Source: Candidatus Latescibacterota bacterium
GTDB taxonomy: Bacteria > Latescibacterota > UBA2968 > GCA-2709665
Direction of reading: 5' to 3'
Length of the DNA stretch: 64,000 bases
Assembly: GCA_963667175.2 (NCBI GenBank)
Contig: CAXXXF010000015.1
Coordinates: 160,001-224,000, forward strand
In this document: one piece after another, positions 49,439-64,000 of the stretch
Layout: the number at the start of each line of letters is the position of its first letter
Position numbering within the stretch: the stretch's first letter is position 1
Program-made: the position numbers and the translations under genes
The notes under the pieces: model-generated
Databases searched by the model: none
What the model was told of the DNA's origin: nothing
What the model saw: the letters and a program-made list of their open reading frames with translations, nothing else

Positions 49439-50443
49439 TCAATCCCCACGGCCGCGACCGACCGCCCCGCCGGAATAAATCACCTCCATCAATCGATCCC
49501 GTTCATCCAGCCGAACGCGCAGGGTGAACGCCCGCCTGTTCAGAAATTGCGGGTTATGGTCCAGCGCCATGCCCAGGACCAGCGAACCCAGCCACCCAAG
49601 GGCGTCTGCCCGGACTCCAAACCGTAGATCGTGGATCAGGAACGTCCGAGCGCTTTCGTCCGACTCGATCACTGCCGGGAAGCGGGCGAACCAGCGATAG
49701 ATCCGCCCGTCCCGCCGTTCCCACAGGCGTTCCAGACGGGGTTCTTCAAGCGCCGATCGGTACGACTTCGGCGACCCGGCAACCCCTGAAAACAGAGATA
49801 CGGGCGCCTCGTGCCATTTCCCTTTGCCGGACGCGATTCCACGCCGGTGCAAAGGAGAAAAGGGCACTGGAACCGCCGCCACCGCCGTCAGACCCTTTTC
49901 GGTCGCCCAGCGGTCCATATGATGGAAGGTGATACCCGATACGGTGATATTGAATGCCATGTAGACGACGAGCGCCGCCGCGCCCAGACGGTACCCATCC
50001 GGCCGCCGTACCTTCCACCCGAGAACCAGGCCGCCGATCAGAATCAGATCCAGGTACGGGTCGATAACAAACAGCACGTCGAACAACGCCCGGTACCTGG
50101 AAAAAGGCATAAGGACCATGGTCCCGTATGAGGTTACCAGGTCGAACAGTATATGCAGCAACAGACCGGTAAGAGCGACAGCATACAGCTTTGTGAACGG
50201 GACGTCCTTGAGTATGAAACGCCGCACGACCCACGCCACGGCGACCGCGCCGATTGCGGCGCCGAACAGCGAATGCGTCATCCCCCGATGCGTCTGCAGG
50301 CTGTCGAGCGCGTCGCTGGAAAGGAATACATCCACGTCCGGCAATATACTGGTCACGGTCACCAGATTCACAAGTCCCCGTTCCCGGGGCCAGACGGATC
50401 GCGCGACGAGGCGGCCAACCAGGCCATGTGTGGGGGTGTCCAT
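49439..50443 (-). CDS. YdjM-like inner-membrane metal-dependent hydrolase
   Basis: MDTPTHG, LPDVD, HRGMTHSL, HILFDLVTSYGT, FVIDP. Confidence 0.85.
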   Translation of the reverse strand: MDTPTHGLVGRLVARSVWPRERGLVNLVTVTSILPDVDVFLSSDALDSLQTHRGMTHSLFGAAIGAVAVAWVVRRFILKDVPFTKLYAVALTGLLLHILFDLVTSYGTMVLMPFSRYRALFDVLFVIDPYLDLILIGGLVLGWKVRRPDGYRLGAAALVVYMAFNITVSGITFHHMDRWATEKGLTAVAAVPVPFSPLHRRGIASGKGKWHEAPVSLFSGVAGSPKSYRSALEEPRLERLWERRDGRIYRWFARFPAVIESDESARTFLIHDLRFGVRADALGWLGSLVLGMALDHNPQFLNRRAFTLRVRLDERDRLMEVIYSGGAVGRGRGD

Positions 50444-50726
50444 TGCGTTCACCTCATTACGGGAAACGAAAACGCGCGCCAACATTCTCCCGTTCCGGCT
50501 TTGCCCGTGCGGCGATTTCGGAAACGGTCGTCTGACGCCGGAGAACCACAACTATCGCATGAATGGCCGCACACACGGAATATACCCAATGACCGGGCTG
50601 AATCAACCCCGCGCAATCGATGCTTGACAGCGTGCGTCCCGTCGATTGAACATAGTTGCGGATTCCGGGCCAGAACGTTAATTCGCCGTTCTTTTCGTGA
50701 GGAATCAACGGTGGGAGGCTGACAGG

Positions 50727-51458
50727 ATGTCCAGACTCGAAGGCAAGGTCGCCCTGATAACCGGCGGAAATCAGGGCATCGGAAAGGGAATCGCGCGCGC
50801 GCTGGCCAGAGAGGGCGCGAACGTCGTGCTGACCGCCAGAACGGGCGGGAAGCTTGAATCGGCGGCGGCGGAGATCCGGGCGGAAGGCGTGGAGGCGCTG
50901 GTCGCGCCCGCGGACGTCACCGACGAATCCCAGGTGGAGGCCGTGTTCGCGCAAACGATGGAACGGTTCGGAAGGCTGGACGTGCTGGTGAACAACGCGG
51001 CTGCTTTTGACGGCGGAAGAATCGACGAGCTTTCCGCGTCGTCCTGGGACTGGGCAATGGCGGTGAATCTGCGCGGACCCTTCCTGTGCACACGGGCGGC
51101 GTTCCGCATTATGAAAAAACAGGGCGGAGGTCGGATAATCAATATAGGCAGCATTTCCGCGCAACGGGTCCGCCCGAATTCGGCGCCTTACAGCACGAGC
51201 AAGTTCGGCATCACCGGCCTGACGCATGCCACGGCGCTGGACGGCAGGGACTACGGGATCGTCTGCTCCTGCCTGCACCCCGGCAACACGCTGGTGGAAC
51301 GACGCGAGGAATCCGACGCGCCAACGGACGACGAACCGATGATGACGGTGGATGAACTGGCGCAGGCCGCGCTGACCATGGCGACGCTGCCGCTTCACGT
51401 CAACATGCTGGAGGCGATCGTGTTGCCCGTCGGACAGCTGTACGTTGGCAGAGGTTGA
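50727..51458 (+). CDS. SDR family oxidoreductase
   Basis: TGGNQGIG, VNNA, YSTSK. Confidence 0.9.
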   Translation: MSRLEGKVALITGGNQGIGKGIARALAREGANVVLTARTGGKLESAAAEIRAEGVEALVAPADVTDESQVEAVFAQTMERFGRLDVLVNNAAAFDGGRIDELSASSWDWAMAVNLRGPFLCTRAAFRIMKKQGGGRIINIGSISAQRVRPNSAPYSTSKFGITGLTHATALDGRDYGIVCSCLHPGNTLVERREESDAPTDDEPMMTVDELAQAALTMATLPLHVNMLEAIVLPVGQLYVGRG

Positions 51459-51561
51459 ATGGGCAACGTATTTCCGGGTTGGCAAAACAGGCATTTCCTC
51501 CGGCCTTCCGGTTCTAATCCTGTTCATTCTGTTCATCCATCTAATCCTGATCGGATTTAAC

Positions 51562-51590
51562 TTGACACTCTCGATATGATTGTTTAACGT
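51562..51590 (+). promoter_or_regulatory. sigma70 promoter of the aromatic supraoperon
   Basis: TTGACA-N17-TAACGT. Confidence 0.6.
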
Positions 51591-51655
51591 TAGACCGTTC
51601 CTGTTGGAAAGGCGGGTTGCCGCAACCCGGCGCGAGACCGGCAGGACGCTGGATC

Positions 51656-51778
51656 ATGCGAGGATCGAACGTGACGGATCGTGGCCGGAACAGGCTTGCC
51701 TGGCGTGGGTATTTTTATCGCTCCTACCGGTGGTACTACCGGGAGGCCGCGGAACGTCATATCTGCCCACGCGAGTAA
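51656..51778 (+). CDS. Leader peptide rich in Trp/Tyr/Phe codons (40 aa; 35 aa if GTG 51671 is the start)
   Basis: MRGSNVTDRGRNRLAWRGYFYRSYRWYYREAAERHICPRE*; 8 of 13 consecutive codons aromatic; too short for the ORF track. Confidence 0.8.
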   Translation: MRGSNVTDRGRNRLAWRGYFYRSYRWYYREAAERHICPRE

Positions 51779-51801
51779 ACCGTTGACAAGTCCGGAAATC
51801 T

Positions 51802-51831
51802 GGCCGTGGGCATCTGCTCACGGTTTTTTTT
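51802..51831 (+). terminator. Attenuator terminator (segments 3:4)
   Basis: CCGTGGGC-atct-GCTCACGG followed by T8, ~100 nt before trpE. Confidence 0.85.
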
Positions 51832-51928
51832 GTCCCGTACGGGATGGGGACATCTGACCGTTCGCTGTCCGGCAAAACACGACGTGGCTATCAGGTTCAC
51901 GAATTCTGATGGCAGGCAGGTGAACTTT

Positions 51929-53410
51929 GTGAGTACGCCCGACCTGGAAACGCTGAAGACGCTGGCTGAAGGCCGGGGACTGGTTCCAATATCCCGAGAG
52001 ATCCTCGGGGATACGGAAACGCCGGTGTCCGCCTATCTCAAGCTGCGGCCCGGGAGTCCCTACAGCTTTCTCTTCGAAAGCGTGGAAGGAGGAGAGAAGA
52101 TCGGGCGCTATTCGTTCCTGGGTGTGGCGCCTTTTCTCGCGTTCAGGTCGTGGAAATCCCGGATCGAGGTGGAGGATCTGAAGCGAGGCGGCATTCGCAG
52201 ATTCGAGGGTTCGCCCATTGCCGAGCTCAGGCTTTTGCTGAAGCAATATCGTTCAGCGCACCTGGAGGGTCTGCCCAGGTTCACCGGCGGGGCCGTGGGA
52301 TACGTGGGCTACGATGCGGTCCGGCTGATTGAAGATATCCCCGACCGAACGGATGACGACCACGGTCTTCCCGACGTTGCGCTGCTGTTCTACGATACGC
52401 TTCTTTGCTTCGACAACGCGCGGCAGAAGATTCATCTGATTTCCAACGTGCACACCTCCGGCGATATCGAGAACAACTTTCGTGAGGCGGAGGCGAGGAT
52501 CGATTCGCTGGAAGGGGCCTTGCGCGCGGCGATTCCCGCGAACGGTGTTTCCCGGGAATCGCCGCGCCGCAAAGCGCGCGAGATCCGGTCCAACACGGAG
52601 AGATCGGTCTTTCTGGACAAGGTGCGGCGCTGCAGGGAGTATATCGTGGCGGGCGATATCTTTCAGGTCGTACTTTCCCAGCGCTTCGAGACGGAGGTAT
52701 CCGCCGGCTCGCTGGACATTTACCGGGCGCTTCGGACGGTAAATCCGTCGCCATACATGTTCCATCTGGATCTGAAAGACGCGCAACTCGTCGGGGCATC
52801 GCCCGAACTGCTGGTGCGTGTCGAAAACGGCGTCGTGCAGGTGCGACCGATCGCGGGTACGCGCTGGAGGGGCGCCACGGAAGAGGAGGACGCCGCCCTG
52901 GAAGCGGACTTGCTGGCCGACGAAAAGGAACGCGCGGAGCACATCATGCTCCTCGATCTCGGCCGGAACGACGTGGGGCGGGTATCCCGATACGACACGG
53001 TACGGGTCACGGAACAGATGGCGATTGAGCGGTATTCTCACGTCATGCATATTGTTTCGAACGTTCAGGGGCATCTCAAAGACGGCGTGGATGCGCTGGA
53101 CGCGCTCTATGCGTGTTACCCGGCGGGCACGGTTTCCGGCGCGCCCAAGATCCGCGCGATGGAGATCATCGACGAACTGGAGCCGACTCGCCGAGGACCT
53201 TACTCGGGGGCAGTGGGCTATATTGACTTTTCCGGCAATATGGATACGTGCATTGCCATACGCACGATGGTGCTGCAGGGACGGAAGGCGTACGTCCAGG
53301 CGGGCGGGGGCATCGTGTTCGATTCCGTACCGGAATACGAGCACCAGGAAACGCTAAACAAGGCGAAGGCGCTGTTCAAGGCGGTCGAGTTGGCGGAAGG
53401 CGCGTTGTAG
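51929..53410 (+). CDS. trpE: Anthranilate synthase component I
   Basis: LFESVEGGEKIGRYSF, NPSPYM, RPIAGT, KERAEHIML, PAGTVSGAPK; start GTG 51920 or 51929. Confidence 0.93.
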   Translation: MSTPDLETLKTLAEGRGLVPISREILGDTETPVSAYLKLRPGSPYSFLFESVEGGEKIGRYSFLGVAPFLAFRSWKSRIEVEDLKRGGIRRFEGSPIAELRLLLKQYRSAHLEGLPRFTGGAVGYVGYDAVRLIEDIPDRTDDDHGLPDVALLFYDTLLCFDNARQKIHLISNVHTSGDIENNFREAEARIDSLEGALRAAIPANGVSRESPRRKAREIRSNTERSVFLDKVRRCREYIVAGDIFQVVLSQRFETEVSAGSLDIYRALRTVNPSPYMFHLDLKDAQLVGASPELLVRVENGVVQVRPIAGTRWRGATEEEDAALEADLLADEKERAEHIMLLDLGRNDVGRVSRYDTVRVTEQMAIERYSHVMHIVSNVQGHLKDGVDALDALYACYPAGTVSGAPKIRAMEIIDELEPTRRGPYSGAVGYIDFSGNMDTCIAIRTMVLQGRKAYVQAGGGIVFDSVPEYEHQETLNKAKALFKAVELAEGAL

Positions 53411-53459
53411 CGGCAACCGTGGATGACGCGATTCCTCAGCAGTCACGATTGGTTGGCCT

Positions 53460-54023
53460 ATGATTCTGGTAATCGACAATTACGACTCGTTCACGTACAA
53501 TCTGGTTCAGTACCTGGGTGAGTTGGGCGCGCGGATGGAAGTATTCCGGAACGACCGGATTGCAATGGACCGGATTGACGCGTCCCAGCCCGAGAAGGTG
53601 GTGATTTCACCCGGTCCTTGTACGCCGAACGAGGCGGGAATCTCCGTGGACCTGATCCGGCGTTTTAGCGGGCGGATTCCGATGCTGGGGGTCTGTCTCG
53701 GACATCAGTGCATCGGGCAGGCCTTCGGAGGCAAGGTCGTTCGGGCGCCTGCGATTCTTCATGGAAAGGTGTCCGAAATCCATCACGACGGTCGTTCGAT
53801 TTTCAGGGGGTTGTCACAGCCCTTTATTGCGACGCGATACCATTCGCTGATTGTCGAACGGGAGAGCCTTCCGGACTGCCTCGAGGTATCCGCACAGACT
53901 CACGACGGTATCATCATGGGACTGCGGCACAGGGACTACCCTGTTGAAGGCGTGCAGTTTCATCCGGAGTCGATATTAACGGCCGAAGGCAAAGTACTGT
54001 TGAAGAATTTCCTGGATGGATGA
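53460..54023 (+). CDS. trpG: Anthranilate synthase component II (glutamine amidotransferase)
   Basis: [29 protein letters not shown]. Confidence 0.93.
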
Positions 54024-54077
54024 AATCGGGGACAGGGAACCGGGTTCCGGCCCCCGTTTGCAAGTTGGGAGACGGCT

Positions 54078-55091
54078 ATGTCGATACAGGATGCGATTTC
54101 GAGACTGATTGAGGGGCAGGATCTGACCCGTGACCGGACGATCGGTTCGATGAACCAGATCATGTCCGGTGAGGCGACAGACGCGCAGATCGGCGCCTAT
54201 CTGGTGGCCCTGCGAGTGAAGGGCGAGACCGTCGAAGAGATCGCGGGCGCCGCGGAGGTGATGAGGGAAAAGGCGACGCGCGTCGTCACGCGGCACGCGA
54301 CGGTGGTGGATACGTGCGGTACCGGGGGTGACGGGGCGGGAACGTTCAATATATCGACGGCGGCGGCTTTTGTGGCGGCCGGCGCCGGGCTGTGTGTTGC
54401 CAAACATGGAAACCGCGCCGCGAGCAGCCTGTGCGGCAGTGCCGACGTCCTGAATGAACTGGGGGTGAATATCGAAGCGTCGCCGAAGACGATGGGTCGG
54501 TGTCTGGATGAGGTTGGCATCGGATTCCTGTTTGCGCCCGCTCTGCACGGCGCCATGAAGTTCGCAATCGGTCCCAGACGCGAGGTCGGCGTGCGTACGA
54601 TTTTCAACGCTCTGGGGCCGCTGACGAATCCCGCGGGCGCAACCCGGCACCTGATCGGCGTCTACAGTCGACCGCTGACCGGCAGGCTTGCCGAGGTGTT
54701 ACGCACGTTGAAATCGGAACGCGCGTTTGTTGTGCACGGGTTGGACGGGCTGGATGAAATCACCACGACCGGACCGACGCAGGTGAGCGAGCTGAACGAT
54801 GGCGCCGTGACATCGTACGAGATCCGACCTGAGGATCTTGGCATCCAAAGGTCGACGCCCGGTGATCTGGCGGGGGGCAACGCCGAAACCAATGCGTCGA
54901 TCCTGCGCAGGGTGCTCAATGGTGAGCCCGGTCCGCGGCGGGACGTCGTCGTTTTGAACGCGGCAGCCGCCATCGTAGCCGGTGGCGCCGCGGTCGATCT
55001 GCAGGCGGGTATTGAACTTGCCGGCGAGACGGTGGATTCGGGGCGGGCAATGGATAAGCTGGAAGAACTGAAACGGGTTTCGGCCGGATGA
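54078..55091 (+). CDS. trpD: Anthranilate phosphoribosyltransferase
   Basis: DTCGTGGDG, NIST, KHGNR, GLDE. Confidence 0.95.
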   Translation: MSIQDAISRLIEGQDLTRDRTIGSMNQIMSGEATDAQIGAYLVALRVKGETVEEIAGAAEVMREKATRVVTRHATVVDTCGTGGDGAGTFNISTAAAFVAAGAGLCVAKHGNRAASSLCGSADVLNELGVNIEASPKTMGRCLDEVGIGFLFAPALHGAMKFAIGPRREVGVRTIFNALGPLTNPAGATRHLIGVYSRPLTGRLAEVLRTLKSERAFVVHGLDGLDEITTTGPTQVSELNDGAVTSYEIRPEDLGIQRSTPGDLAGGNAETNASILRRVLNGEPGPRRDVVVLNAAAAIVAGGAAVDLQAGIELAGETVDSGRAMDKLEELKRVSAG

Positions 55092-55184
55092 AGCCGGCGC
55101 CGAACCTTTACGATATCCTCGCCCTCGATTTACGCCAGGGACGGGACTGGCGCCTGTTGGCGCGCGGAAACGAAGAAGGGGAAC

Positions 55185-55976
55185 ATGGCTACGATTCTGG
55201 ATGAGATCATCGCATATAAACGCCGCGTTGTGGCCGAGGCAAAGCGGCAGGTATCCCCTGAGGCGTTGCGGAAGCAGGCAGACCTGGTTCGTCAGCCGGA
55301 CTCGCTGATGGACAGCTTGACTGCCGGGGAGGATATCGCGCTGATTGCGGAGATAAAAAAGGCATCTCCGTCCAAAGGGATAATCAGGGAGAGTTTCGAT
55401 CCTGTTGAAATCGGCCGGTCTTACGAGAAAAACGGCGCGGCGGCCATTTCCGTGCTGACGGATGTAAAGTATTTCCGGGGCTCCGATGCCAGTCTGAAGG
55501 CCGTGAGCGAGGCCGTGGAATTGCCGGTGCTCCGGAAGGATTTCGTGGTTGATCCGTATCAGATCCACGAGGCCAGGACAATCGGCGCGTCCGCGGTTTT
55601 GCTCATTGTTTCAGCGCTTTCCCCGCGCAAATTGTCAGAGATGCTCAGCGTTTGCAGGGAGTCGCAACTGGACGCCCTGGTGGAAGTGCACACTCCGGAT
55701 GAAGCGAGGATGGCGCTGGACGCGGGCGCGGATCTCGTGGGGGTGAATAACCGCGACTTGAAGACGTTTGCTACGGATTTGCAGACCACGTTCGATCTGC
55801 TTGAACATCTGCCGGACGATCTTGTCGTTGTAAGCGAGAGCGGCATCAGGAACAGAGACCACGTCGTCCGGTTGAGGGATGGCGGTGTGGACGCGGTACT
55901 GGTCGGGGAACATCTGATGCGCCAACCCGACGTGGGTCGGGAGCTTCGAGCGTTGTTGGGCGTGGAAGGCGGCTGA
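55185..55976 (+). CDS. trpC: Indole-3-glycerol phosphate synthase
   Basis: IAEIKKASPSKG, LRKDF, GVNNRDL, SESGI. Confidence 0.95.
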   Translation: MATILDEIIAYKRRVVAEAKRQVSPEALRKQADLVRQPDSLMDSLTAGEDIALIAEIKKASPSKGIIRESFDPVEIGRSYEKNGAAAISVLTDVKYFRGSDASLKAVSEAVELPVLRKDFVVDPYQIHEARTIGASAVLLIVSALSPRKLSEMLSVCRESQLDALVEVHTPDEARMALDAGADLVGVNNRDLKTFATDLQTTFDLLEHLPDDLVVVSESGIRNRDHVVRLRDGGVDAVLVGEHLMRQPDVGRELRALLGVEGG

Positions 55977-55984
55977 TTCAACCT

Positions 55985-56617
55985 ATGGTTCGGGTGAAGA
56001 TTTGCGGAATTACGAATCCGGAGGATGCGCTCTTTGCGGTCGCACAGGGTGTGGACGCCCTGGGGTTCATCTTCTACGAGCGCAGCCCGCGTTACGTGCA
56101 TCCGGAACGCGTCGGCAGGATCGTGTCGGCGTTGCCGCCCTTCGTGACGCCCGTAGGGGTTTTCGTGAACACGGCCAGGGAGGACGTCCTGGCGATCGCA
56201 CGGTTGACAGGGCTGCGAGCGGTCCAACTGCACGGCGACGAGACGCCCGCCGAATGTCTTGGATATCCGATTCCGGTCATCCGGGCATTGCGGGTCGGCG
56301 ACGGTTTCGACCCCGCTTCTCTGAGCGACTTTCCGGTAGACACGTTTCTGCTGGATACGGCCAAAAAGGGATGGTACGGCGGCACCGGAGAGTCTTTTGA
56401 CTGGCGGGTCGCATCGGCGGCCGCGGCACACGGACGGATCATTCTCTCGGGGGGAATCAATCCGTCGAACGTGGCAGACGCGGTGCGGACGGTGAATCCG
56501 TACGCGGTGGACTGCGGCAGCGGCGTCGAGGCCGCGCCGGGACGGAAGGACCCCGACAGAATCGCGGAATTCTTCGAAGCGCTTCGCTCGGTAACCCGAG
56601 GAAACCGGAATTCCTGA
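55985..56617 (+). CDS. trpF: Phosphoribosylanthranilate isomerase
   Basis: VKICGIT, QLHGDE, GGTG..FDW, SGVE. Confidence 0.95.
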   Translation: MVRVKICGITNPEDALFAVAQGVDALGFIFYERSPRYVHPERVGRIVSALPPFVTPVGVFVNTAREDVLAIARLTGLRAVQLHGDETPAECLGYPIPVIRALRVGDGFDPASLSDFPVDTFLLDTAKKGWYGGTGESFDWRVASAAAAHGRIILSGGINPSNVADAVRTVNPYAVDCGSGVEAAPGRKDPDRIAEFFEALRSVTRGNRNS

Positions 56618-56651
56618 ACCCATCGTTCGAATTGAATCGGAGCCTGAACCC

Positions 56652-57914
56652 GTGGACGTCATGAAGGATCTGGATTTTCGGGGATACGTCTTTCAGGTAA
56701 CGGACCCCGGCGGCCTTGAAACGCGACTCGACCGGGGGCCGATCACGCTATACTCGGGATTCGACCCCACGGCAGAGAGCTTGCACGTCGGCAACCTGAT
56801 TCCCATACTGGGACTGCGGCGGTTTCAATTGGCGGGGCATCATGCAATCGGGCTTATCGGCGGTGGCACGGGTTTGATTGGCGACCCGAGCGGCAGCAAG
56901 GAAGAACGCCCGTTGAACCCGCCCGAGCTGATCGCGGAATATACCCGGAAGCTCACGGAGCAACTGGCCAGATTCCTGGATTTCGAATCGGGAACCAATC
57001 CCGCCCGCGTGGTCAGCAATCTGGGCTGGCTTTCCAAATTGAAGGCGATTGACTTCCTGAGAGACACGGGCAAGCACTTCTCCGTGGGCTATATGCTGGC
57101 GAAAGAGTCCGTGGCATCGCGGCTGGAGTCCGGGATCTCTTTCACCGAGTTCAGTTACATGGTCATTCAGGCCTATGATTTCATGGAGTTGTTTCGGACA
57201 CATGGGTGTGAACTCCAGATCGGCGGAAGCGATCAATGGGGAAATATAACAGCGGGAATCGAGTTGATCCGACGGCGGCTGGGAGGGCAGGCCCACGGCC
57301 TGACGTTTCCGCTGCTGCAGAAAGCCGACGGCGCCAAGTTCGGCAAGACCGCGTCGGGCGCCGTCTGGCTGGACGCGGAAAAGACGTCGCCGTACCAGCT
57401 GTACCAGCACATGATAAATACAGGCGACCGGGACGTGGTGACGTTTCTCAAGCTGTTTACCTTTCTATCCGAGGATGAGATCGGAAATCTGGAACTGGAG
57501 GTGTCACAACACCCTGAGAAGCGGGAAGCGCAGCGCGTGCTGGCCGAGGAGGTCACCACCCTCGTTCACGACAGCGCCGCCGCCGGGCGCGCGCACAGGA
57601 TTTCCGAGGCGTTGTTCTACGGTGATCTGCGCAATCTGAGTGCGAGAGAGATCGAGGAAGGGTTCAGCGACGTGCCGTCTCACGCGCTCAACGGCGTGGC
57701 AGAAGCGGGTCTGGTCAATCTTCTGGTGGATGCGGGCATTTCATCTTCGATGCGCCAGGCCCGCGAAGACGTCAGGTCCGGCGCCGTATATCTCAATGGA
57801 CTGCGTTGCGTCGACGTGGGCCGGACCCTGGACCCTGACGACAGGCTCGCAGGCAGATACCTTATCGTACGACGCGGCAAACGCCGCTACTTTCTGGTAC
57901 GCTGGAACCTTTGA
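56652..57914 (+). CDS. tyrS: Tyrosine--tRNA ligase
   Basis: GFDPTAESLHVGN, QIGGSDQWGNI, KFGKT, RRGKRRY; start may be ATG 56661. Confidence 0.95.
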   Translation: MDVMKDLDFRGYVFQVTDPGGLETRLDRGPITLYSGFDPTAESLHVGNLIPILGLRRFQLAGHHAIGLIGGGTGLIGDPSGSKEERPLNPPELIAEYTRKLTEQLARFLDFESGTNPARVVSNLGWLSKLKAIDFLRDTGKHFSVGYMLAKESVASRLESGISFTEFSYMVIQAYDFMELFRTHGCELQIGGSDQWGNITAGIELIRRRLGGQAHGLTFPLLQKADGAKFGKTASGAVWLDAEKTSPYQLYQHMINTGDRDVVTFLKLFTFLSEDEIGNLELEVSQHPEKREAQRVLAEEVTTLVHDSAAAGRAHRISEALFYGDLRNLSAREIEEGFSDVPSHALNGVAEAGLVNLLVDAGISSSMRQAREDVRSGAVYLNGLRCVDVGRTLDPDDRLAGRYLIVRRGKRRYFLVRWNL

Positions 57915-58010
57915 CGGGCGATCGTGCGACCGCTCTTGCGTATGGATGCAATGATCCGGTTTTGAATGTTCGAAGCTCGGCAGGAAAATCAAAAAGAGAG
58001 GATTCATTCG

Positions 58011-58988
58011 ATGAAAGCACCGTGGATAACCTACCGGCCGGAACTGAAAGTACTTGATTGTACGATTCGTGACGGCGGATTGATGAACGACCACCAGTTC
58101 TCCGATGATTTCGTGAAGGCGGTATATGAAACCTGCGTCAACGCGGGTGTCGATTATATGGAAATCGGTTACCGGAACTCCAAGGAGATGTTTCCCAAAG
58201 ACCAGTTCGGGGCTTTCCGACATAGCGACGAAGAAGACATCCGGAAGATTACCGGCGACCACGACCCGGAAACGACCGGCCTGAAGCTCGCCGTCATGGC
58301 GGACGCGGGCAAGAGTGACTGGGCGGAAGACGTCCTGCCGGCCAGCGACAGCGTCGTCAGTATGGTACGGGTCGCCTGTTACGTCGAGCAGATTCCCGAG
58401 ACCGTCGAAATGCTCTGCGACGCCCATGAGAAAGGATATGAAACCAGCTGCAACATAATGGCCGTCTCCACCGTGCAGGAGGTCGAGATCGACCAGGCGC
58501 TGGAAGTGCTTGTACAGACGCCCGTCGGAACGATCTGCGTCGTAGACAGTTTTGGCGCATTGTACCGCGAGCAGGTGGATATGCTGATCCGGAAGTACAT
58601 GGACGCCGTCAGCGGGACGGGGAAAGAAGTGGGCATTCACGCGCACAACAACCAGCAACTTGCATTTGCCAATACCATCGAAGCGCTCATTCTCGGCGCA
58701 AACCGCGTGGATGCCACGGTGGACGGCCTTGGAAGGGGCGCGGGGAACTGCCCCCTGGAACTGCTCCTCGGATTCCTCCGAAATCCCAAGTTCAAGATCC
58801 GTCCCGTCTACAAGCTGCTGGAAGACCATTTTGTCAAACTGCGCGGTGAATTGACGTGGGGCCCTCTCGTTCCGTATAATATCACGGGGCAGCACAATCA
58901 GCATCCCCGCTCGGCAATGGCGCTGCTGGACGGGAAGGACCGCGATCGCTACCTGGCATTCTACGATCAGGTGATGAGGGACATCTGA
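58011..58988 (+). CDS. DRE-TIM metallolyase, 4-hydroxy-2-oxovalerate aldolase-like
   Basis: LDCTIRDGG, VDSFG, GIHAHNN, GLGRGAGNCPLE. Confidence 0.8.
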   Translation: MKAPWITYRPELKVLDCTIRDGGLMNDHQFSDDFVKAVYETCVNAGVDYMEIGYRNSKEMFPKDQFGAFRHSDEEDIRKITGDHDPETTGLKLAVMADAGKSDWAEDVLPASDSVVSMVRVACYVEQIPETVEMLCDAHEKGYETSCNIMAVSTVQEVEIDQALEVLVQTPVGTICVVDSFGALYREQVDMLIRKYMDAVSGTGKEVGIHAHNNQQLAFANTIEALILGANRVDATVDGLGRGAGNCPLELLLGFLRNPKFKIRPVYKLLEDHFVKLRGELTWGPLVPYNITGQHNQHPRSAMALLDGKDRDRYLAFYDQVMRDI

Positions 58989-59056
58989 TCGGGCGACTCC
59001 CTGCCCCGGCGAGGGGCTGAATCCGCCCGGGGACCACACCTTTACAGGATAGGGAA

Positions 59057-60268
59057 ATGGCGCTACCGAGAGCAGATGGACCATCCCGTACATTGCCGGA
59101 TTCCGGGGGGCATTTCGGTCCCTACGGCGGGCGATACGTGCCGGAGACGTTGATGCCGTTGCTGGAGGACCTGGAGGCAGCCTATCGCGAAGCGAAGGAC
59201 CGTCCGGATTTTCAGGAGGAACTGAACCGGTATCTCAGGGAGTTTGTGGGCAGGCCCACGCCGCTCACCTTCGCGCAACGACTGACATCGGAACTGGGTG
59301 GGGCGAGAATCTATCTGAAGCGAGAGGACCTCGCCCACACCGGCGCGCACAAGATCAACCACGCTATGGGTCAGATTCTGCTTGCCCGGCGGATGGGCAA
59401 GACGCGGATCATCGCGGAAACCGGCGCCGGGCAGCACGGTGTGGCAACGGCAACCGTGGCTGCGATGTTCGGACTGGACTGCGAGGTTTACATGGGCACG
59501 GAAGACATGGAGCGGCAGGCGCTGAACGTGTTTCGGATGCGGCTCCTCGGCGCAAAGGTGACGGGTGTGGATTCGGGCAGCAGGACGCTGAAGGATGCGA
59601 TTAACGAAGCCATTCGCGATTGGGTGACGAACGTGGACGATACGTTCTACATTTTCGGATCCGTCCTGGGACCTCACCCGTATCCGATGATCGTACGCGA
59701 TTTTCAGCGCGTCATCGGAGTGGAGACTCGAAAGCAGATCCTGCGGGCCGAGGGCCGGCTGCCGGAATGTCTTATCGCGTGCGTCGGCGGCGGCAGCAAT
59801 TCCATCGGTCTGTTTCACGCATTTCTCGAGGACGCGGACGTCCGGATGATCGGTGTCGAAGCGGGCGGGCATGGAATCGCCTCGGGCGATCACGCGGCGC
59901 GATTTCAGGGTGGGGATCTGGGCGTGCTGCACGGCGCCAGGATATATCTCCTGCAGGACGAGGACGGGCAGATCGCGCTGACCCATTCCGTTTCCGCCGG
60001 CCTGGATTATTCCGGAGTCGGCCCTGAACACTGCCATCTGCGCGACGCGGGACGGATCGAATATGCCTATGCAACCGATGACGAGACACTGAAGGCCTTC
60101 CAACTGCTGAGCCGCACCGAGGGGATCATCCCCGCACTCGAAAGCGCGCATGCGATCGCGTACGTGTCAAAAGCCGCACCTGAGATGGACAGGGATGCCG
60201 TCATTGTGGCGAATCTCTCAGGCAGGGGAGACAAAGACGTGCAGCAGGCGGCGAAGTTCCTGGACTAG
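59057..60268 (+). CDS. trpB: Tryptophan synthase beta chain
   Basis: [36 protein letters not shown]. Confidence 0.97.
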
Positions 60269-60308
60269 TCCTGTCCCAGGGATGCGTTCGACACAAGGGA
60301 TTGTTCGG

Positions 60309-61121
60309 ATGACAAGAATCGGAAAGCGGTTCGCACTGTTGAAGAAAACGAGAAGGACCGGATTCGTCGCATATATCACTGCCGGAGATCCGGACCTGGA
60401 AACCACCCGCAAACTGGCGCCGGAGCTCGAACGGCGCGGGGTGGACGTTCTCGAACTGGGGGTGCCGTTCTCCGACCCGCTGGCGGACGGACCGGAGATC
60501 CAGCGGGCGTCACAGCGGGCCCTTCGGCATCGGGTGTCGATCGGCGACGTACTGGATCTGGTATCGGACCTGCGGCGCGAGACGGAATTGCCCATCGTGC
60601 TCTTTACGTATTTCAATCCTATGCATCGCTTCGGTCTTGAACGGCTTGTCGACAGGGCGGCCGAAGCGGGGGTGGACGGCTTTCTGGCATTGGATCTTCC
60701 GCCTGAGGAGGCGGCCGAGTACAGGAGTCTGATGGGGGAACGGGGATTGGACACGGTTTTCCTGATCGCGCCGACGAGCCGCGAGGATCGCATCCGGCGG
60801 ATCGCGTCATACACCAGCGGCTTTGTGTATTACGTGTCGCGTACGGGCGTTACGGGGGAGCGGGACAGCCTGGAGGAGACTCTCGGCGCCAGGGTGGCGA
60901 CCATCAGACGACATACCTCTCTACCGGTTGCGGTGGGATTCGGTATTTCAACCCCGGAACAGTCCAGGGAGATTGCGGGATACGCGGATGCCGTCGTTGT
61001 CGGCAGCGCAATCGTCCGGCGAATCGCCGAGCGGCAGACGGACCCGGATCTCGTTTTACACGTCGGGGCATTCGTGGAGGAACTGGCGCAACCCCTGAAG
61101 GGAACATCCGATGGATCTTGA
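60309..61121 (+). CDS. trpA: Tryptophan synthase alpha chain
   Basis: ELGVPFSDPLADGP.IQ, SRTGVTG, VGFGIS, VVGSA. Confidence 0.95.
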   Translation: MTRIGKRFALLKKTRRTGFVAYITAGDPDLETTRKLAPELERRGVDVLELGVPFSDPLADGPEIQRASQRALRHRVSIGDVLDLVSDLRRETELPIVLFTYFNPMHRFGLERLVDRAAEAGVDGFLALDLPPEEAAEYRSLMGERGLDTVFLIAPTSREDRIRRIASYTSGFVYYVSRTGVTGERDSLEETLGARVATIRRHTSLPVAVGFGISTPEQSREIAGYADAVVVGSAIVRRIAERQTDPDLVLHVGAFVEELAQPLKGTSDGS

Positions 61122-61404
61122 AGACTGGCGGAAGGAAATCGACGCCCTGGATCAACAGCTTCTGGCGCTTCTGAAACGACGAGCCGAATGTGCGCTTCAA
61201 ATTGGCATGATCAAACAGACGATCGAACAGCCGATTTACGCGCCGGAACGCGAGACGTCGATCCTGAACCGAATTCGCGAACTGAACGCCGGACCCCTGA
61301 CCGACGAAGCGGTGCAACGAATATTTCAGCAGATTATCGATGAATCCAGGCGGCTCGAACAGGAGCACGGCGAACGGCAGTCGGGAGACGTGAAACACCC
61401 CTGA
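61111..61404 (+). CDS. Monofunctional AroQ-type chorismate mutase
   Basis: R.EID.LD..L..LL..R, IG..K, PERE, IIDESR. Confidence 0.9.
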   Translation: MDLEDWRKEIDALDQQLLALLKRRAECALQIGMIKQTIEQPIYAPERETSILNRIRELNAGPLTDEAVQRIFQQIIDESRRLEQEHGERQSGDVKHP

Positions 61405-61427
61405 TTCATAAGCGGAGCATCCAGCGG

Positions 61428-62456
61428 ATGGCTTTTACGAAAAACATGAAGATTCCCACACCGGAAGCCGTGCTGGAAGAAATGCCGCTTCCGAAGAGAC
61501 TGAAGGACGTAAAGGAGCAGCGGGATGCGCAGATCAGGGACATCTTCGCACGCACGAGCCGTAAATTTCTACTGGTGATCGGCCCCTGTTCAGCGCACGA
61601 TGAAGATGCCGTATGCGAATACGTCTCCAGGCTGGCGAAACTGCAGGAGGCAGTCCGTGAAACGCTGGTTCTGGTGCCTCGAATCTATACCAACAAACCC
61701 CGCACGACCGGCGAAGGGTACAAGGGCATGGGGCATCAGCCGGACCCCCGAAAGGCGCCGGACCTGTCCGAAGGCATTTACGCGGTTCGTCAGATGCACA
61801 TCCGCGCGGTCAGGGAGTCCCACCTGACGGCGGCCGACGAAATGCTGTATCCGGGCAATCTGCCGTACGTCGAAGATCTGCTGAGTTATATCGCCGTGGG
61901 CGCCCGGTCGGTGGAAAACCAACAGCACCGACTAACCTGCAGCGGCGTCGACGTCCCCGTTGGAATGAAGAACCCGACGGCGGGCGACCTGTCTGTGACG
62001 TTGAATGCGATTCACGCCTCGCAGATCCCACACGTCTTCATCTATAACGGATGGGAAGTCAGCACCAGCGGCAATTCCCTGACACACGCCGTGCTTCGCG
62101 GCGCCGTGGACGTGAACGGGCGAAGTATGCCGAACTATCATTTCGAAGACCTCATGTACGCGGCGGCACTCTACGGGCAAAGGCAGCTTGCCAACGCCAC
62201 AATCGTCGTGGATACGAATCACGACAATTCCGGCAAGCAGTTCAGCGAACAACCCAGGATCGGATTGGACGTGGTCCGCAGCCGGCGGAGTTCAACGATA
62301 TTACACGGCATGATCCGCGGGTTGATGGTTGAGAGCTATCTGGAAGAAGGCGCCCAGAACGTCAATGAAGGCGTGTTCGGCAAGTCCATTACCGATCCGT
62401 GCCTGGGTTGGGAAGATACCGAGGCGTTCGTAAAGGAACTGGCGGAGGGGATATGA
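61428..62456 (+). CDS. DAHP synthase, class I-alpha
   Basis: GPCSA, KPRTTG.GYKG, GARS.E.Q.HR, GMKNP, ITDPC. Confidence 0.93.
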   Translation: MAFTKNMKIPTPEAVLEEMPLPKRLKDVKEQRDAQIRDIFARTSRKFLLVIGPCSAHDEDAVCEYVSRLAKLQEAVRETLVLVPRIYTNKPRTTGEGYKGMGHQPDPRKAPDLSEGIYAVRQMHIRAVRESHLTAADEMLYPGNLPYVEDLLSYIAVGARSVENQQHRLTCSGVDVPVGMKNPTAGDLSVTLNAIHASQIPHVFIYNGWEVSTSGNSLTHAVLRGAVDVNGRSMPNYHFEDLMYAAALYGQRQLANATIVVDTNHDNSGKQFSEQPRIGLDVVRSRRSSTILHGMIRGLMVESYLEEGAQNVNEGVFGKSITDPCLGWEDTEAFVKELAEGI

Positions 62457-62534
62457 TAACGAACGGAATCGGAAAACAGGAACGGAGCCGGACGTTCCGC
62501 AGGCGCTCTGGCCTCCGTTTCCGAGGATGACTGC

Positions 62535-63647
62535 ATGGCCATCGATCCTCCGTTTGCGCGTGAGACCATTGCGATTGTGGGTGTCGGGCTGATTGGCGGT
62601 TCTCTTGGCGTGGGGTTCAAGAGTCTGGGCATCGGGCGACGCGTCATTGGCATCGGCAGGCAGGAGACGCTGGAGGCGGCAGGCAATCTGAACGTAATCG
62701 ACGCGGGCTATCGTTACGAGGAACTCGCATCCGGGATTCGCGAAGCCGCGCTCGTTTTCCTGTGCACCCCCATTGTGCGTATTCTTGACCTGCTGCCGGA
62801 GGTGCTGGCGGCGGCGCGCCAGAATGCGGTCGTGACCGACGTGGGCAGCACCAAGCACGCGATTGTTTCCGCCGCGGCGGCCCATCGACGGGGCGGCGTG
62901 CATTTCGTGGGCGGGCACCCGATGGCGGGTTCCGAGCACCGCGGGGTTGGCGCGGCGGATCCGTTCCTGTTTCAGAATGCGATCTACGTACTGACACCCT
63001 CGCCGGGCACGCCCGATTTCGTGGTCGATAAGCTCTCACGCCTCGTCAGGAGGCTCGGGGCGAGACCGATGAGGATGACGCCCCGGGAACACGACCGCGC
63101 GGCGGCGGCGGTAAGTCACCTTCCGCAGATGATGGCCACAACCCTGGTATCCATGATCGGACGGATGACCGAGACCGAAGGCCTGCCGATTCGAATGACG
63201 GCGGGCGGGTTTCGGGATCTGACGCGCATTGCATCCAGCCCGTATGAGATGTGGCGGGACATCTGCCGAACAAACGCGGCCCCGATCCGCGAGATGATCG
63301 ATCTGTATATCGAGTCGCTGGCGGCGATTCGCGGCGCCGTGGACGACGACCGGCTGGAGCAGGCGTTTGCCGTTGCGAACCGGGTACGCGGGCAGATCCC
63401 GAAGGACTCCAAGGGGTTCTTGCATCCGCTGCACGAGATACTCCTGGTGGCGGAAGACAGGCCGGGCGTGATCGCCGACGTCGCCCGGAAGCTGGCTGCG
63501 GAGAAAATCAACATCAACGACATCGAGGTGTTGAACGTCCGTGAGGGAGAAGGAGGCACCATCCGGATGGGTTTCGATTCACGTCCTTGCGCGGAACAGG
63601 CCGTAGACGTGTTGGGGAAGGCGGGATACAGCGTCAGATTGAGGTAA
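62535..63647 (+). CDS. tyrA: Prephenate dehydrogenase with C-terminal ACT domain
   Basis: GVGLIGGS, DVGSTK, GGHPMAGSE, HD...VSHLP, GFRDLTRIA, DRPG. Confidence 0.92.
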   Translation: MAIDPPFARETIAIVGVGLIGGSLGVGFKSLGIGRRVIGIGRQETLEAAGNLNVIDAGYRYEELASGIREAALVFLCTPIVRILDLLPEVLAAARQNAVVTDVGSTKHAIVSAAAAHRRGGVHFVGGHPMAGSEHRGVGAADPFLFQNAIYVLTPSPGTPDFVVDKLSRLVRRLGARPMRMTPREHDRAAAAVSHLPQMMATTLVSMIGRMTETEGLPIRMTAGGFRDLTRIASSPYEMWRDICRTNAAPIREMIDLYIESLAAIRGAVDDDRLEQAFAVANRVRGQIPKDSKGFLHPLHEILLVAEDRPGVIADVARKLAAEKININDIEVLNVREGEGGTIRMGFDSRPCAEQAVDVLGKAGYSVRLR

Positions 63648-63697
63648 ATGGACGAATCCCGGGACCATGAATAGATTGGCTGCGGTTTTGTGGGATA

Positions 63698-63756
63698 ACG
63701 GTCCGTTGAAAAAGTCGCTCTGCAGGCGAGCCGGATGGACTTTATCGACGGACTGA
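63698..63756. mobile_element. Family A MITE reduced to its two ends (59 bp)
   Basis: ACGGTCCGTTGAAAAAGTCGCTCTGCAGGCGAG joined to CCGGATGGACTTTATCGACGGACTGA, TA-flanked. Confidence 0.7.
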
Positions 63757-63840
63757 TACCGCGCAGGTCGTCCAATTGCCCGCGACGGATCGTCAATGCA
63801 CGATACGGTGTGGGTTAATCATCAGTGCGAGGAGAGTCTT

Positions 63841-63981
63841 ATGAGACTGGTCTTCAGGTTATTTCTTCTGGCGTTGTTGGTGTTTCTGGGTGGCGTCGTA
63901 TATATCCGGTTCACCTACAACTGCTCCTGGAAGGAGAGTTTCGCCATTGCCGACCAGTTCGTGTCTGACCTGACCGGTTGA
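63841..63981 (+). CDS. Small membrane protein (46 aa)
   Basis: GAGGAG RBS, ATG 63841, one TM helix. Confidence 0.55.
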   Translation: MRLVFRLFLLALLVFLGGVVYIRFTYNCSWKESFAIADQFVSDLTG

Positions 63982-64000
63982 GCGACGTGTTGAAATCGGG

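Follow-up and report, generated by a model that had tools for sequence, protein, structure and literature searches.

The trpL leader of Escherichia coli is 14 codons long, and the attenuation mechanism in which it takes part is known from the work of Yanofsky. To our knowledge, the aromatic leader attenuators described so far sense one amino acid each, Trp in the case of trp and Phe in the cases of pheA and pheST. Here we analyse a leader at positions 51562 to 51831 of a 64,000-nucleotide stretch of DNA (the window) from contig CAXXXF010000015.1 of a Candidatus Latescibacterota bacterium. The leader lies in front of trpE, the first gene of a twelve-gene aromatic operon, and its control codons are five Tyr, two Trp and one Phe. 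The element is very probably an attenuator of the trpL kind, and we are fairly confident that ribosome-mediated (leader-peptide) transcription attenuation of this operon accounts for the arrangement as a whole.

Two known arrangements resemble the locus in part. The thr and ilv leaders are multivalent, sensing Thr/Ile and Ile/Leu/Val; like the leader studied here, they combine codons for more than one amino acid of the pathway in one leader, but none of these amino acids is aromatic. The aromatic supraoperon of Bacillus subtilis unites trp, common aromatic pathway genes and tyrA in one long unit, and its trp genes are controlled by the TRAP protein and not by a leader peptide. The union of trp with common-pathway genes and tyrA is shared with the window, whereas the B. 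subtilis unit differs in its gene order, its lack of tyrS and its control by TRAP.

The trpL mechanism as set out in the available text of PMC11802643 provides the closest model for the anatomy. In both loci trpE is preceded by a short leader open reading frame (ORF) whose regulatory codons stand at segment 1, and both have 1:2, 2:3 and 3:4 pairings (predicted to exclude one another in the present leader), an intrinsic terminator followed by a T run, and the same stalling logic. The present leader differs from trpL in having 35 codons, in its mixed control codons where trpL has two Trp, in a stop codon placed after segment 2, and in an operon to which tyrS, chorismate mutase, DAHP synthase and tyrA belong as well.

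Among described cases, aroR of Corynebacterium glutamicum comes closest, a leader with Phe-Tyr-Phe that precedes aroF, a DAHP synthase gene (Neshat et al. 2014; PMC11802643, PMC7356990, in the parts available). The first-pass annotation of the window, which knew of no described example, was too strong on this point, as aroR is a mixed aromatic leader in those sources. There, too, a DAHP synthase gene is controlled by ribosome stalling on mixed aromatic codons, but aroR contains no Trp and controls the aroF operon, not trp or tRNA synthetase genes; in the leader studied here, Tyr dominates and Trp is present. In Acholeplasma, the uORFC-13-1 motif is an ORF located upstream of aroF and adjacent to a terminator stem, and Phe sensing has been proposed for it (PMC8632094, available text). 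It shares with our locus the upstream ORF before a DAHP synthase gene, the terminator stem and the proposed aromatic sensing, but it concerns Phe, aroF alone and another lineage. Synthetase genes under leader-peptide attenuators include pheST in E. coli and trpS and leuS in Streptomyces (PMC11802643, PMC1262725), and leader-peptide control of cysS is described in Rhodobacterales (PMC8632094), as far as the available text of these papers goes. In those cases, as for tyrS behind Tyr codons and trpS behind W-W in the present genome, codons for the synthetase's own amino acid stand ahead of the gene; the difference is that here the synthetase gene tyrS lies inside a biosynthetic operon and shares its one leader. 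In the literature searched, which covered older attenuation work and subscription journals thinly, neither a Tyr/Trp/Phe leader ahead of trpE nor a Tyr leader ahead of tyrS was described. An Rfam scan of 50000–64000 with E values up to 10 gave three chance-level matches, none of them in the leader, and neither Trp_leader nor any other leader family was found.

Leader reading frame, RNA segments and alternative folds

The promoter, leader ORF, aromatic control stretch, four RNA segments and run of eight T that the first-pass annotation had proposed are all in place, and anatomy, folds and conservation agree with its assignment of a four-segment, trpL-type leader-peptide attenuator. The parts of the element, all on the + strand, are as follows (minimum free energy, MFE).

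51562–51590 (+), putative promoter: -35 TTGACA (51562–51567), 17-nucleotide (nt) spacer, -10 TAACGT (51585–51590)
51660–51664 (+), Shine-Dalgarno sequence GAGGA, 6 nt before GTG 51671
51671–51778 (+), leader ORF, 35 codons and TAA (51776–51778): VTDRGRNRLAWRGYFYRSYRWYYREAAERHICPRE
51701–51739 (+), control codons W-R-G-Y-F-Y-R-S-Y-R-W-Y-Y
51703–51710 (+), segment 1, GCGTGGGT; as pairing arm GCGTGGGTA, 51703–51711; pairs with segment 2
51718–51752 (+), inner hairpin inside the 1:2 loop, over codons 17–27; helices 51718–21/51749–52, 51723–25/51744–46 and 51727–32/51737–42 in the MFE fold
51765–51772 (+), segment 2, GCCCACGC; as pairing arm TGCCCACGC, 51764–51772; pairs with segment 1 or segment 3
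51802–51831 (+), intrinsic terminator: stem 51802–11/51816–25 (segments 3 and 4), loop ATCT, T8 at 51824–31
51805–51812 (+), segment 3, CGTGGGCA
51816–51823 (+), segment 4, GCTCACGG

A translatable ORF with a Shine-Dalgarno sequence and a start codon is thus present between the promoter and the first structural gene, trpE. An in-frame ATG at 51656 would give a 40-codon version, MRGSNVTDRGRNRLAWRGYFYRSYRWYYREAAERHICPRE, which contains the same two Trp, five Tyr and one Phe in its control stretch and was the version first annotated. The leader most likely starts instead at GTG 51671 and has 35 codons, because GTG is conserved in relatives and the ATG is absent or out of frame there. GTG is the first leader codon in 13 of the 14 species of the genus, and it is kept in relatives together with a GGAGGA-type Shine-Dalgarno sequence, whereas ATG 51656 is missing from them. 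The sequence GGAGGA or GGAGA occupies the Shine-Dalgarno place in other members of the genus as well as in genera g2 and g4. In a metatranscriptome contig of ~93% identity, ATG 51656 is out of frame because one additional G follows 51659. Relatives of both families carry TTGACA-N16/17-TAnnnT at the place of the 51562–51590 promoter.

The density of aromatic codons is unusual for the genome. Among 59,834 short ORFs (15–70 amino acids) genome-wide, only three reach at least 8 aromatic residues in 13, and the trpE leader is the sole one of these with a hairpin and T run within 90 nt downstream. None of four versions of the leader ORF is present in a collection of 15 billion predicted proteins. 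Could the ORF have arisen by chance beside the terminator of the upstream gene? The fold energy of the whole region is not unusual (z = -1.14; 26 of 200 shuffles are equally stable), as such an origin would predict. The upstream gene, however, stops at 51458, which leaves 344 nt up to the terminator, and the promoter lies in this interval; so few ORFs of the genome are equally aromatic; and the element stands next to trpE in nearly all other genomes of the order (below), a conservation that already contradicts a chance origin. We consider its probability negligible.

The arrangement of the segments follows that of trpL. Segments 2 and 3 form a perfect 8-nt inverted repeat (51764–71/51805–12), and the segment 2–3 pattern occurs once in the window, against an expectation of 0.01. 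The hallmark of an attenuator is seen in the resemblance of segment 1 to segment 3 (8/9) and of segment 2 to segment 4 (10/11). The control codons overlap segment 1, the last base of segment 2 (51772) is 4 nt short of the stop codon, and segment 3 begins 26 nt past the leader stop codon. Computed fold energies are -32.6 kcal/mol for the 1:2 domain (51700–51775), -20.7 for the 2:3 domain and -15.6 for the 3:4 hairpin, which is the order required by trpL logic. The mutually exclusive 2:3 and 1:2 pairings are both present in the predicted folds of the window, and the inner hairpin is a possible pause hairpin.

From these parts the following course of events is proposed. Transcription would begin a few bases past the -10 element, at what we infer to be the start site, and the ribosome would begin at GTG 51671 and read the 35-codon leader with its aromatic core. 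When charged tRNA-Tyr, probably also tRNA-Trp and perhaps tRNA-Phe, is plentiful, the ribosome would reach the stop codon at 51776 and cover segment 2, so that the 3:4 terminator forms and the transcript ends in the T run. A stall on the aromatic codons, which overlap segment 1 or lie past it, would cover segment 1 and leave segment 2 free to pair with segment 3 while segment 4 is still to be transcribed; the polymerase would then continue into trpE and the rest of the operon. If the leader were not translated at all, 1:2 and 3:4 would both form and transcription would terminate. A response to starvation would be expected on this scheme. Tyr would be the main signal, which fits the presence of tyrS, tyrA, chorismate mutase and DAHP synthase in the operon, and Trp the second, in keeping with the seven trp genes; the one Phe codon might make a small contribution.

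Folding of the related loci agrees in part with this scheme. The first-pass annotation had proposed compensatory changes and the folding of alternatives as checks, and each gave a divided outcome. The terminator is in the MFE fold of all 29 sequences from related loci, with 98.3% of its cells paired and compensatory change in 2 of 10 pairs; the antiterminator core is 87.5% paired in the same sequences, shows no compensatory change, and its covariation score is reached by 500 of 500 shuffles. Covariation support is limited to the terminator. When full transcripts were folded at equilibrium with segment 1 masked, the antiterminator replaced the terminator in only 4 of 29 sequences. Because the terminator won in the other 25, the equilibrium MFE fold with a masked ribosome was dropped as a test of the switch and cut transcripts were used instead, in which the ribosome stands on the last aromatic codon and the RNA ends before segment 4. 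In these, segment 3 pairs upstream with segment 2 in 28 of 29 sequences, and the exception is due to the rule by which the ribosome was placed. Since the antiterminator loses at equilibrium in most sequences, the switch would have to operate kinetically, as it does in E. coli.

Several of these results weigh against the proposed attenuation mechanism and temper our confidence in it: the ordinary fold energy of the whole region, the lack of covariation in the antiterminator core, and the outcome at equilibrium. The energies of the cut folds, moreover, are often within 1–2 standard deviations of shuffled controls (for locus L008, -16.7 against -16.8 ± 3.2), and the kinetic order of folding is assumed in the mechanism. 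The 1:2 pairing as it appears in the window is found in 68% of cells across the order. A simple promoter scan did not list the 51562–51590 promoter, because its -10, TAACGT, matches at only 3 of 6 positions, and we count this against the observation.

RNA data come from a relative. Four metatranscriptome runs yielded only contigs 90–95% alike. Contigs from two runs of one study cover 51611–51811 and 51632–51831, others cover parts of trpE, and 51840–52213 is not covered. RNA libraries thus contain a relative's leader, but assembled contigs give no information on ends, strand or level and may derive from DNA, which further reduces their weight for attenuation. Short contigs over the leader would also be expected if the terminated leader RNA or its peptide acted in trans, additionally or mainly, as the Sinorhizobium trpL products rnTrpL (RNA) and peTrpL (peptide) are described to do in the available part of the source. 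Such a role is also compatible with the second promoter-like block that follows the terminator in several other genera (below), where the leader unit could stand alone. The flanks of the peptide, on the other hand, vary freely within the genus, contigs are not informative on transcript ends, and no target is known; a trans role would in any case add to attenuation and not replace it. We regard it as quite improbable.

Conservation of the leader in related genomes

TrpE was found in all 41 related genomes, which represent two families and nine genera. Upstream of trpE, a short aromatic-rich ORF, closely followed at its end by a G+C hairpin and T run, is present at 29 of 30 loci drawn from the two families and nine genera, and the sole miss, L023, has only ~140 nt before the contig end. 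Examples are WRGYFYRSYRWYYRE in the window's genus, FFWRSFRYYRYYRQ in genus g2 and FWYFWRRFDGRYYYYRR in family f2. A covariance model was built from the 3' 130 nt of related loci and run on 151 genomes sampled from the phylum, with the following matches.

Own family f1: 18 of 18 genomes
Family f2: 29 of 30 genomes
Sister family f3: 0 of 64 genomes
Family f4: 1 of 2 genomes, weak
Ten further families: 0 of 36 genomes

The element is therefore present in 47 of the 48 other genomes of the order, with one strong match per genome. Among the strong matches listed (E ≤ 5e-6) for which the position of trpE is known, all are within ~0.5 kb of trpE except that of G027, which sits at the end of its single-contig record. 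Seven weaker matches have E values from 1.7e-4 to 5.8e-3; one of them, in G114, is just before trpE, and it is the only one with a trpE known at that place. The operon order trpEGDCF-tyrS-(aldolase-like)-trpBA-chorismate mutase-DAHP synthase-tyrA is kept in all 15 loci read over 16 kb.

The aromatic codons themselves are conserved across two families, as the first-pass annotation had proposed to verify. The core R-G-Y-F-Y-R-S-Y-R-x-Y-Y-R is fixed in the 14 species of the genus, and the sequence on either side of it varies freely. The Tyr positions, which are the best conserved, show only TAT/TAC swaps or changes from Tyr to Phe, and the core holds one conserved Phe. Tyr, Trp and Phe are each present in all 29 leaders, and Tyr outnumbers Trp in every one of them, in keeping with the dominance of Tyr first noted in the window. 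Segment 1 varies among genera, lying in family f2 over the codons for A-T-C-F-W and in g4 over those for A-A-Y-N-S-F-F-W, but it is still placed over the first aromatic codons and the three-way architecture is kept. Families with greatly different leader DNA still encode F-W-Y-F-W-R-R-F-D-G-R-Y-Y-Y-Y, and the retention of so dense a run of Phe, Trp and Tyr in divergent DNA argues for selection on the codons themselves. As a point on the other side, part of the conservation of Tyr codons in the genus could be due to the predicted inner hairpin at 51718–52 and not to coding.

These data also bear on whether the leader is a usual Trp attenuator in which the Tyr and Phe codons are unsensed by-products of U/A-rich sequence needed for RNA structure. 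The operon does begin with trpE, as in classical trp attenuators, and the inner hairpin includes some of the Tyr codons in its stem. A by-product of structure would not be expected to persist where the RNA sequence and segment 1 differ, as the aromatic codons do among the families, nor to show synonymous change at Tyr codons. Furthermore, the preponderance of Tyr over Trp goes with tyrS in the operon (29 of 29 leaders) and is never found with trpS (0 of 14), and the genome has a plain W-W leader where Trp alone matters, before trpS. Control by Trp alone is highly improbable.

Some relatives carry additional sequence after the attenuator terminator and ahead of trpE. A second promoter-like block, TTGACA-N18-TATTAT, is present there in L016 and L018, and inspection by eye shows one like it, with a weaker -10, in L015, L021 and L022. 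All five loci have the conserved word AATTCTTACAGTTA, or a close variant of it, before trpE. Neither the block nor a AATTCTTACAGTTA-type word is present in any of the 14 loci of the window's genus. The block and the word together may be a second, separately controlled promoter or operator. As several other genera have the block, the attenuator is not the sole control there, which counts against extending a purely attenuated operon to them.

Leader composition and the synthetase gene of the operon

In 38 of the 41 related genomes tyrS lies 3–7 kb downstream of trpE on the same strand and is the only tyrS match. The other three comprise G034, in which the operon is split, and two genomes in which the position of tyrS could not be judged. 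In G034 (L205 and L206), trpE-trpG-trpD are still behind the leader, and tyrS and the aldolase-like gene are 1.85 Mb away behind short repeats. In three genomes this slot of the operon is occupied by another type of tyrS (L116, 5223–6446; L125; L166), ~30% identical to the window TyrS but scoring as tyrS by TIGR00234; this looks like the replacement of one tyrS type by another in place.

The sister family provides a comparison. TrpE of this type is found in 14 of its 41 sampled genomes, and the operon there is trpEGDC-trpS-CM-tyrA-aroA-aroE-argS (CM, chorismate mutase), with trpS 2.5–4 kb downstream of trpE in 13 of the 14 and not judgeable in one. The leaders are Trp-rich, for example RRWWWRFWSY and RYWWRFWF (core R-Y-W-W-R-F-W), with 2–4 Trp and 0–2 Tyr; Trp equals or exceeds Tyr in all 14, where for L158 the ORF of the earlier of two surveys was counted. 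One genome of a further family has the leader SFFESSRFYYYWRFYGG together with tyrS. The sister leader being Trp-rich with trpS in the slot where tyrS accompanies a Tyr-rich leader, the comparison suggests that leader composition tracks the synthetase gene in the operon.

The synthetase gene that is left outside the operon tends to have a leader of its own. The window genome carries trpS elsewhere (contig C4, 185152–186141; locus L169), preceded by the leader ORF MAARGIHSGCWWRHDFNRAGRLTAC with tandem Trp (C-W-W-R); ~100–300 nt upstream of the gene are a promoter, TTGACA-N17-TATCGT, the ORF and, directly ahead of trpS, a G+C hairpin with T run, which together read as a leader-peptide attenuator of its own. 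A crude scan found a leader of this type at 14 of 17 loci of the same family and at 0 of 11 of the other. In the sister family, tyrS is located elsewhere and has Tyr leaders at 3 of 5 loci, each followed by a G+C hairpin and T run: MTTHRLRAYYRYYRSPGAFD in L171, MALKSYYYRLEKQYGG in L172 and MRTIKRRYRGYAYYSTRG... in L173, with the cores RAYYRYYRS, KSYYYR and RYRGYAYYS. The motif R-Y-Y-R-Y-Y-R is common to a sister-family tyrS leader and the operon leader of genus g2. A crude scan of the genome for short ORFs before hairpins and T runs did not turn up a leader for His, Leu, Thr, Ile/Val or Phe, although the scan was insensitive and missed the trpS leader too. No aromatic-rich ORF was found in the 350 nt upstream of pheA (contig C2:94412).

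The control codons match the products of the operon, which makes Trp and Tyr and charges tRNA-Tyr. Judged from codon content and its conservation, Tyr is likely to be sensed, and we lean towards sensing of at least two amino acids; that all three are sensed is less likely than not, a reading drawn from the codons only. With similar reserve we put forward the possibility of a composite sensor, a leader in which codon composition evolves together with the tRNA synthetase gene of its operon. It would combine a Trp module (F-F-W-R/W-R-F-W, compare the sister trp-trpS operon) with a Tyr module (R-Y-Y-R-Y-Y-R, compare the sister tyrS leader), and the peptide might read the charging of tRNA-Tyr, tRNA-Trp and perhaps tRNA-Phe. 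The synthesis of Trp and of Tyr, entry into the common pathway and the level of the sole TyrRS could in this way be set jointly.

Against multiple sensing stands the low conservation of Trp. The two Trp positions, kept in 12 and 9 of the 14 species of the genus and otherwise changed to L, R or Y, are the least conserved of the core, while the Tyr positions are invariant or become Phe in all 14. This would suit an attenuator in which only the five Tyr codons, with their tandem Y-Y, stall the ribosome, the Trp codons being relics of a Trp-rich ancestor like the sister leader, which is indeed Trp-rich, and the Phe incidental. In the available text of PMC11802643, aroR responds to Phe limitation and not to Tyr availability, that is, to just one of the two amino acids it encodes; the presence of a codon is therefore no proof of sensing. 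At least one Trp is nevertheless present in all 29 leaders although Trp is rare in proteins, and in the window the first Trp codon is right at segment 1. Seven trp genes stand under the element, and in the absence of a second promoter-like block from all 14 genus loci they have no other visible control. Sensing of Tyr alone is, on balance, unlikely.

The link between leader and synthetase has weak points as well. The G034 leader keeps Y-Y-Y although tyrS has moved away. One or two evolutionary events, and not 55 independent ones, underlie the contrast of the tyrS with the trpS lineages, and the match between leader and synthetase is therefore suggestive, not statistical.

Operon content and implications

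The genes downstream of the leader are listed below; trp genes, tyrS, chorismate mutase, DAHP synthase and tyrA had been recognized correctly at first, and the aldolase-like gene between tyrS and trpB had been missed.

51929–53410 (+), trpE, anthranilate synthase I; Pfam Chorismate_bind and Anth_synt_I_N; TIGR00564 above cut-off
53460–54023 (+), trpG; Pfam GATase
54078–55091 (+), trpD; Pfam Glycos_transf_3
55185–55976 (+), trpC; Pfam IGPS
55985–56617 (+), trpF; Pfam PRAI
56652–57914 (+), tyrS; TIGR00234, 382.5 bits
57966–58988 (+), HMGL-like gene of the DRE-TIM aldolase family, role unassigned; Pfam HMGL-like
59057–60268 (+), trpB; Pfam PALP
60150–61121 (+), trpA, longest ORF, true start probably later; Pfam Trp_syntA from ORF residue 61
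61111–61404 (+), chorismate mutase (AroQ type), overlapping the end of trpA; TIGR01807, 86 bits, above cut-off
61428–62456 (+), DAHP synthase (AroF/G/H type); TIGR00034, 245 bits, above cut-off
62535–63647 (+), tyrA, prephenate dehydrogenase with ACT domain; Pfam PDH_N, PDH_C and ACT

The NCBIfam prephenate dehydrogenase models match tyrA, all of them below their curated cut-offs. The tyrS gene is the single match to a tyrosyl-tRNA synthetase in the genome, and pheA and trpS are located on other contigs. From trpE to tyrA the genes overlap or are separated by gaps of 9 to 94 nt. There is no + strand terminator-like site between genes of the operon, and the total number of such sites is no higher than in shuffled sequence. 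Owing to the small gaps and overlaps and the lack of an intergenic terminator-like site, the twelve genes probably form a single transcription unit. A strong promoter-like match, TTGACG-18-TATAAT (11/12), occurs at 58851–58880 inside the aldolase-like gene, upstream of trpB. As an internal promoter for trpB to tyrA it was rejected, since it is not kept in any of nine relatives, and it is treated as a by-product of coding sequence.

The aldolase-like gene is present at 9 of 15 operon loci and shows 87–96% identity between the two families, compared with ~70% for TrpE. All of its NCBIfam matches are below cut-offs. The nearest Protein Data Bank entry is 3dxi, a 'putative aldolase', and atlas clusters are named just 'aldolase catalytic domain'.

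Two features of the leader region are recorded separately. Arg makes up 9 of the 35 residues encoded by 51671–51775, and R12, R17, R20 and R24 are invariant in the 14 species. Sister-family leaders likewise alternate aromatic residues with Arg, and the operon there ends with argS. The Arg richness may reflect the G+C needs of the stems, Arg sensing or another cause. Just upstream of the promoter, at 51500–51550, are short intergenic repeated words, ATCCTGTTCATCC and CATCCTGTCCATCC. Words of this type occur elsewhere in the genome too, for example on contig C6 near 59470 and 240000, and similar words are found 3' of the terminator at family f2 loci; in one frame they give Phe-rich pseudo-ORFs.

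Taken at its firmest, the result is a Tyr-dominated leader with Trp and Phe codons, conserved order-wide, over an operon that unites Trp and Tyr synthesis with the initial step of the common pathway and holds the only tyrS. For annotation, the element is one that Rfam models miss and that is absent from the predicted-protein collection. The sister family is a built-in comparison, with a Trp-rich leader in the operon that contains trpS and a separate Tyr leader on tyrS, where the window genome has a separate Trp leader on trpS. The evolution of the amino acid specificity of an attenuator thereby becomes directly testable by a few codon swaps. If the composite reading is true, the leader would be without precedent in integrating all three aromatic amino acids, and would be a natural case in which the specificity of an attenuator was rewritten when trpS was exchanged for tyrS.

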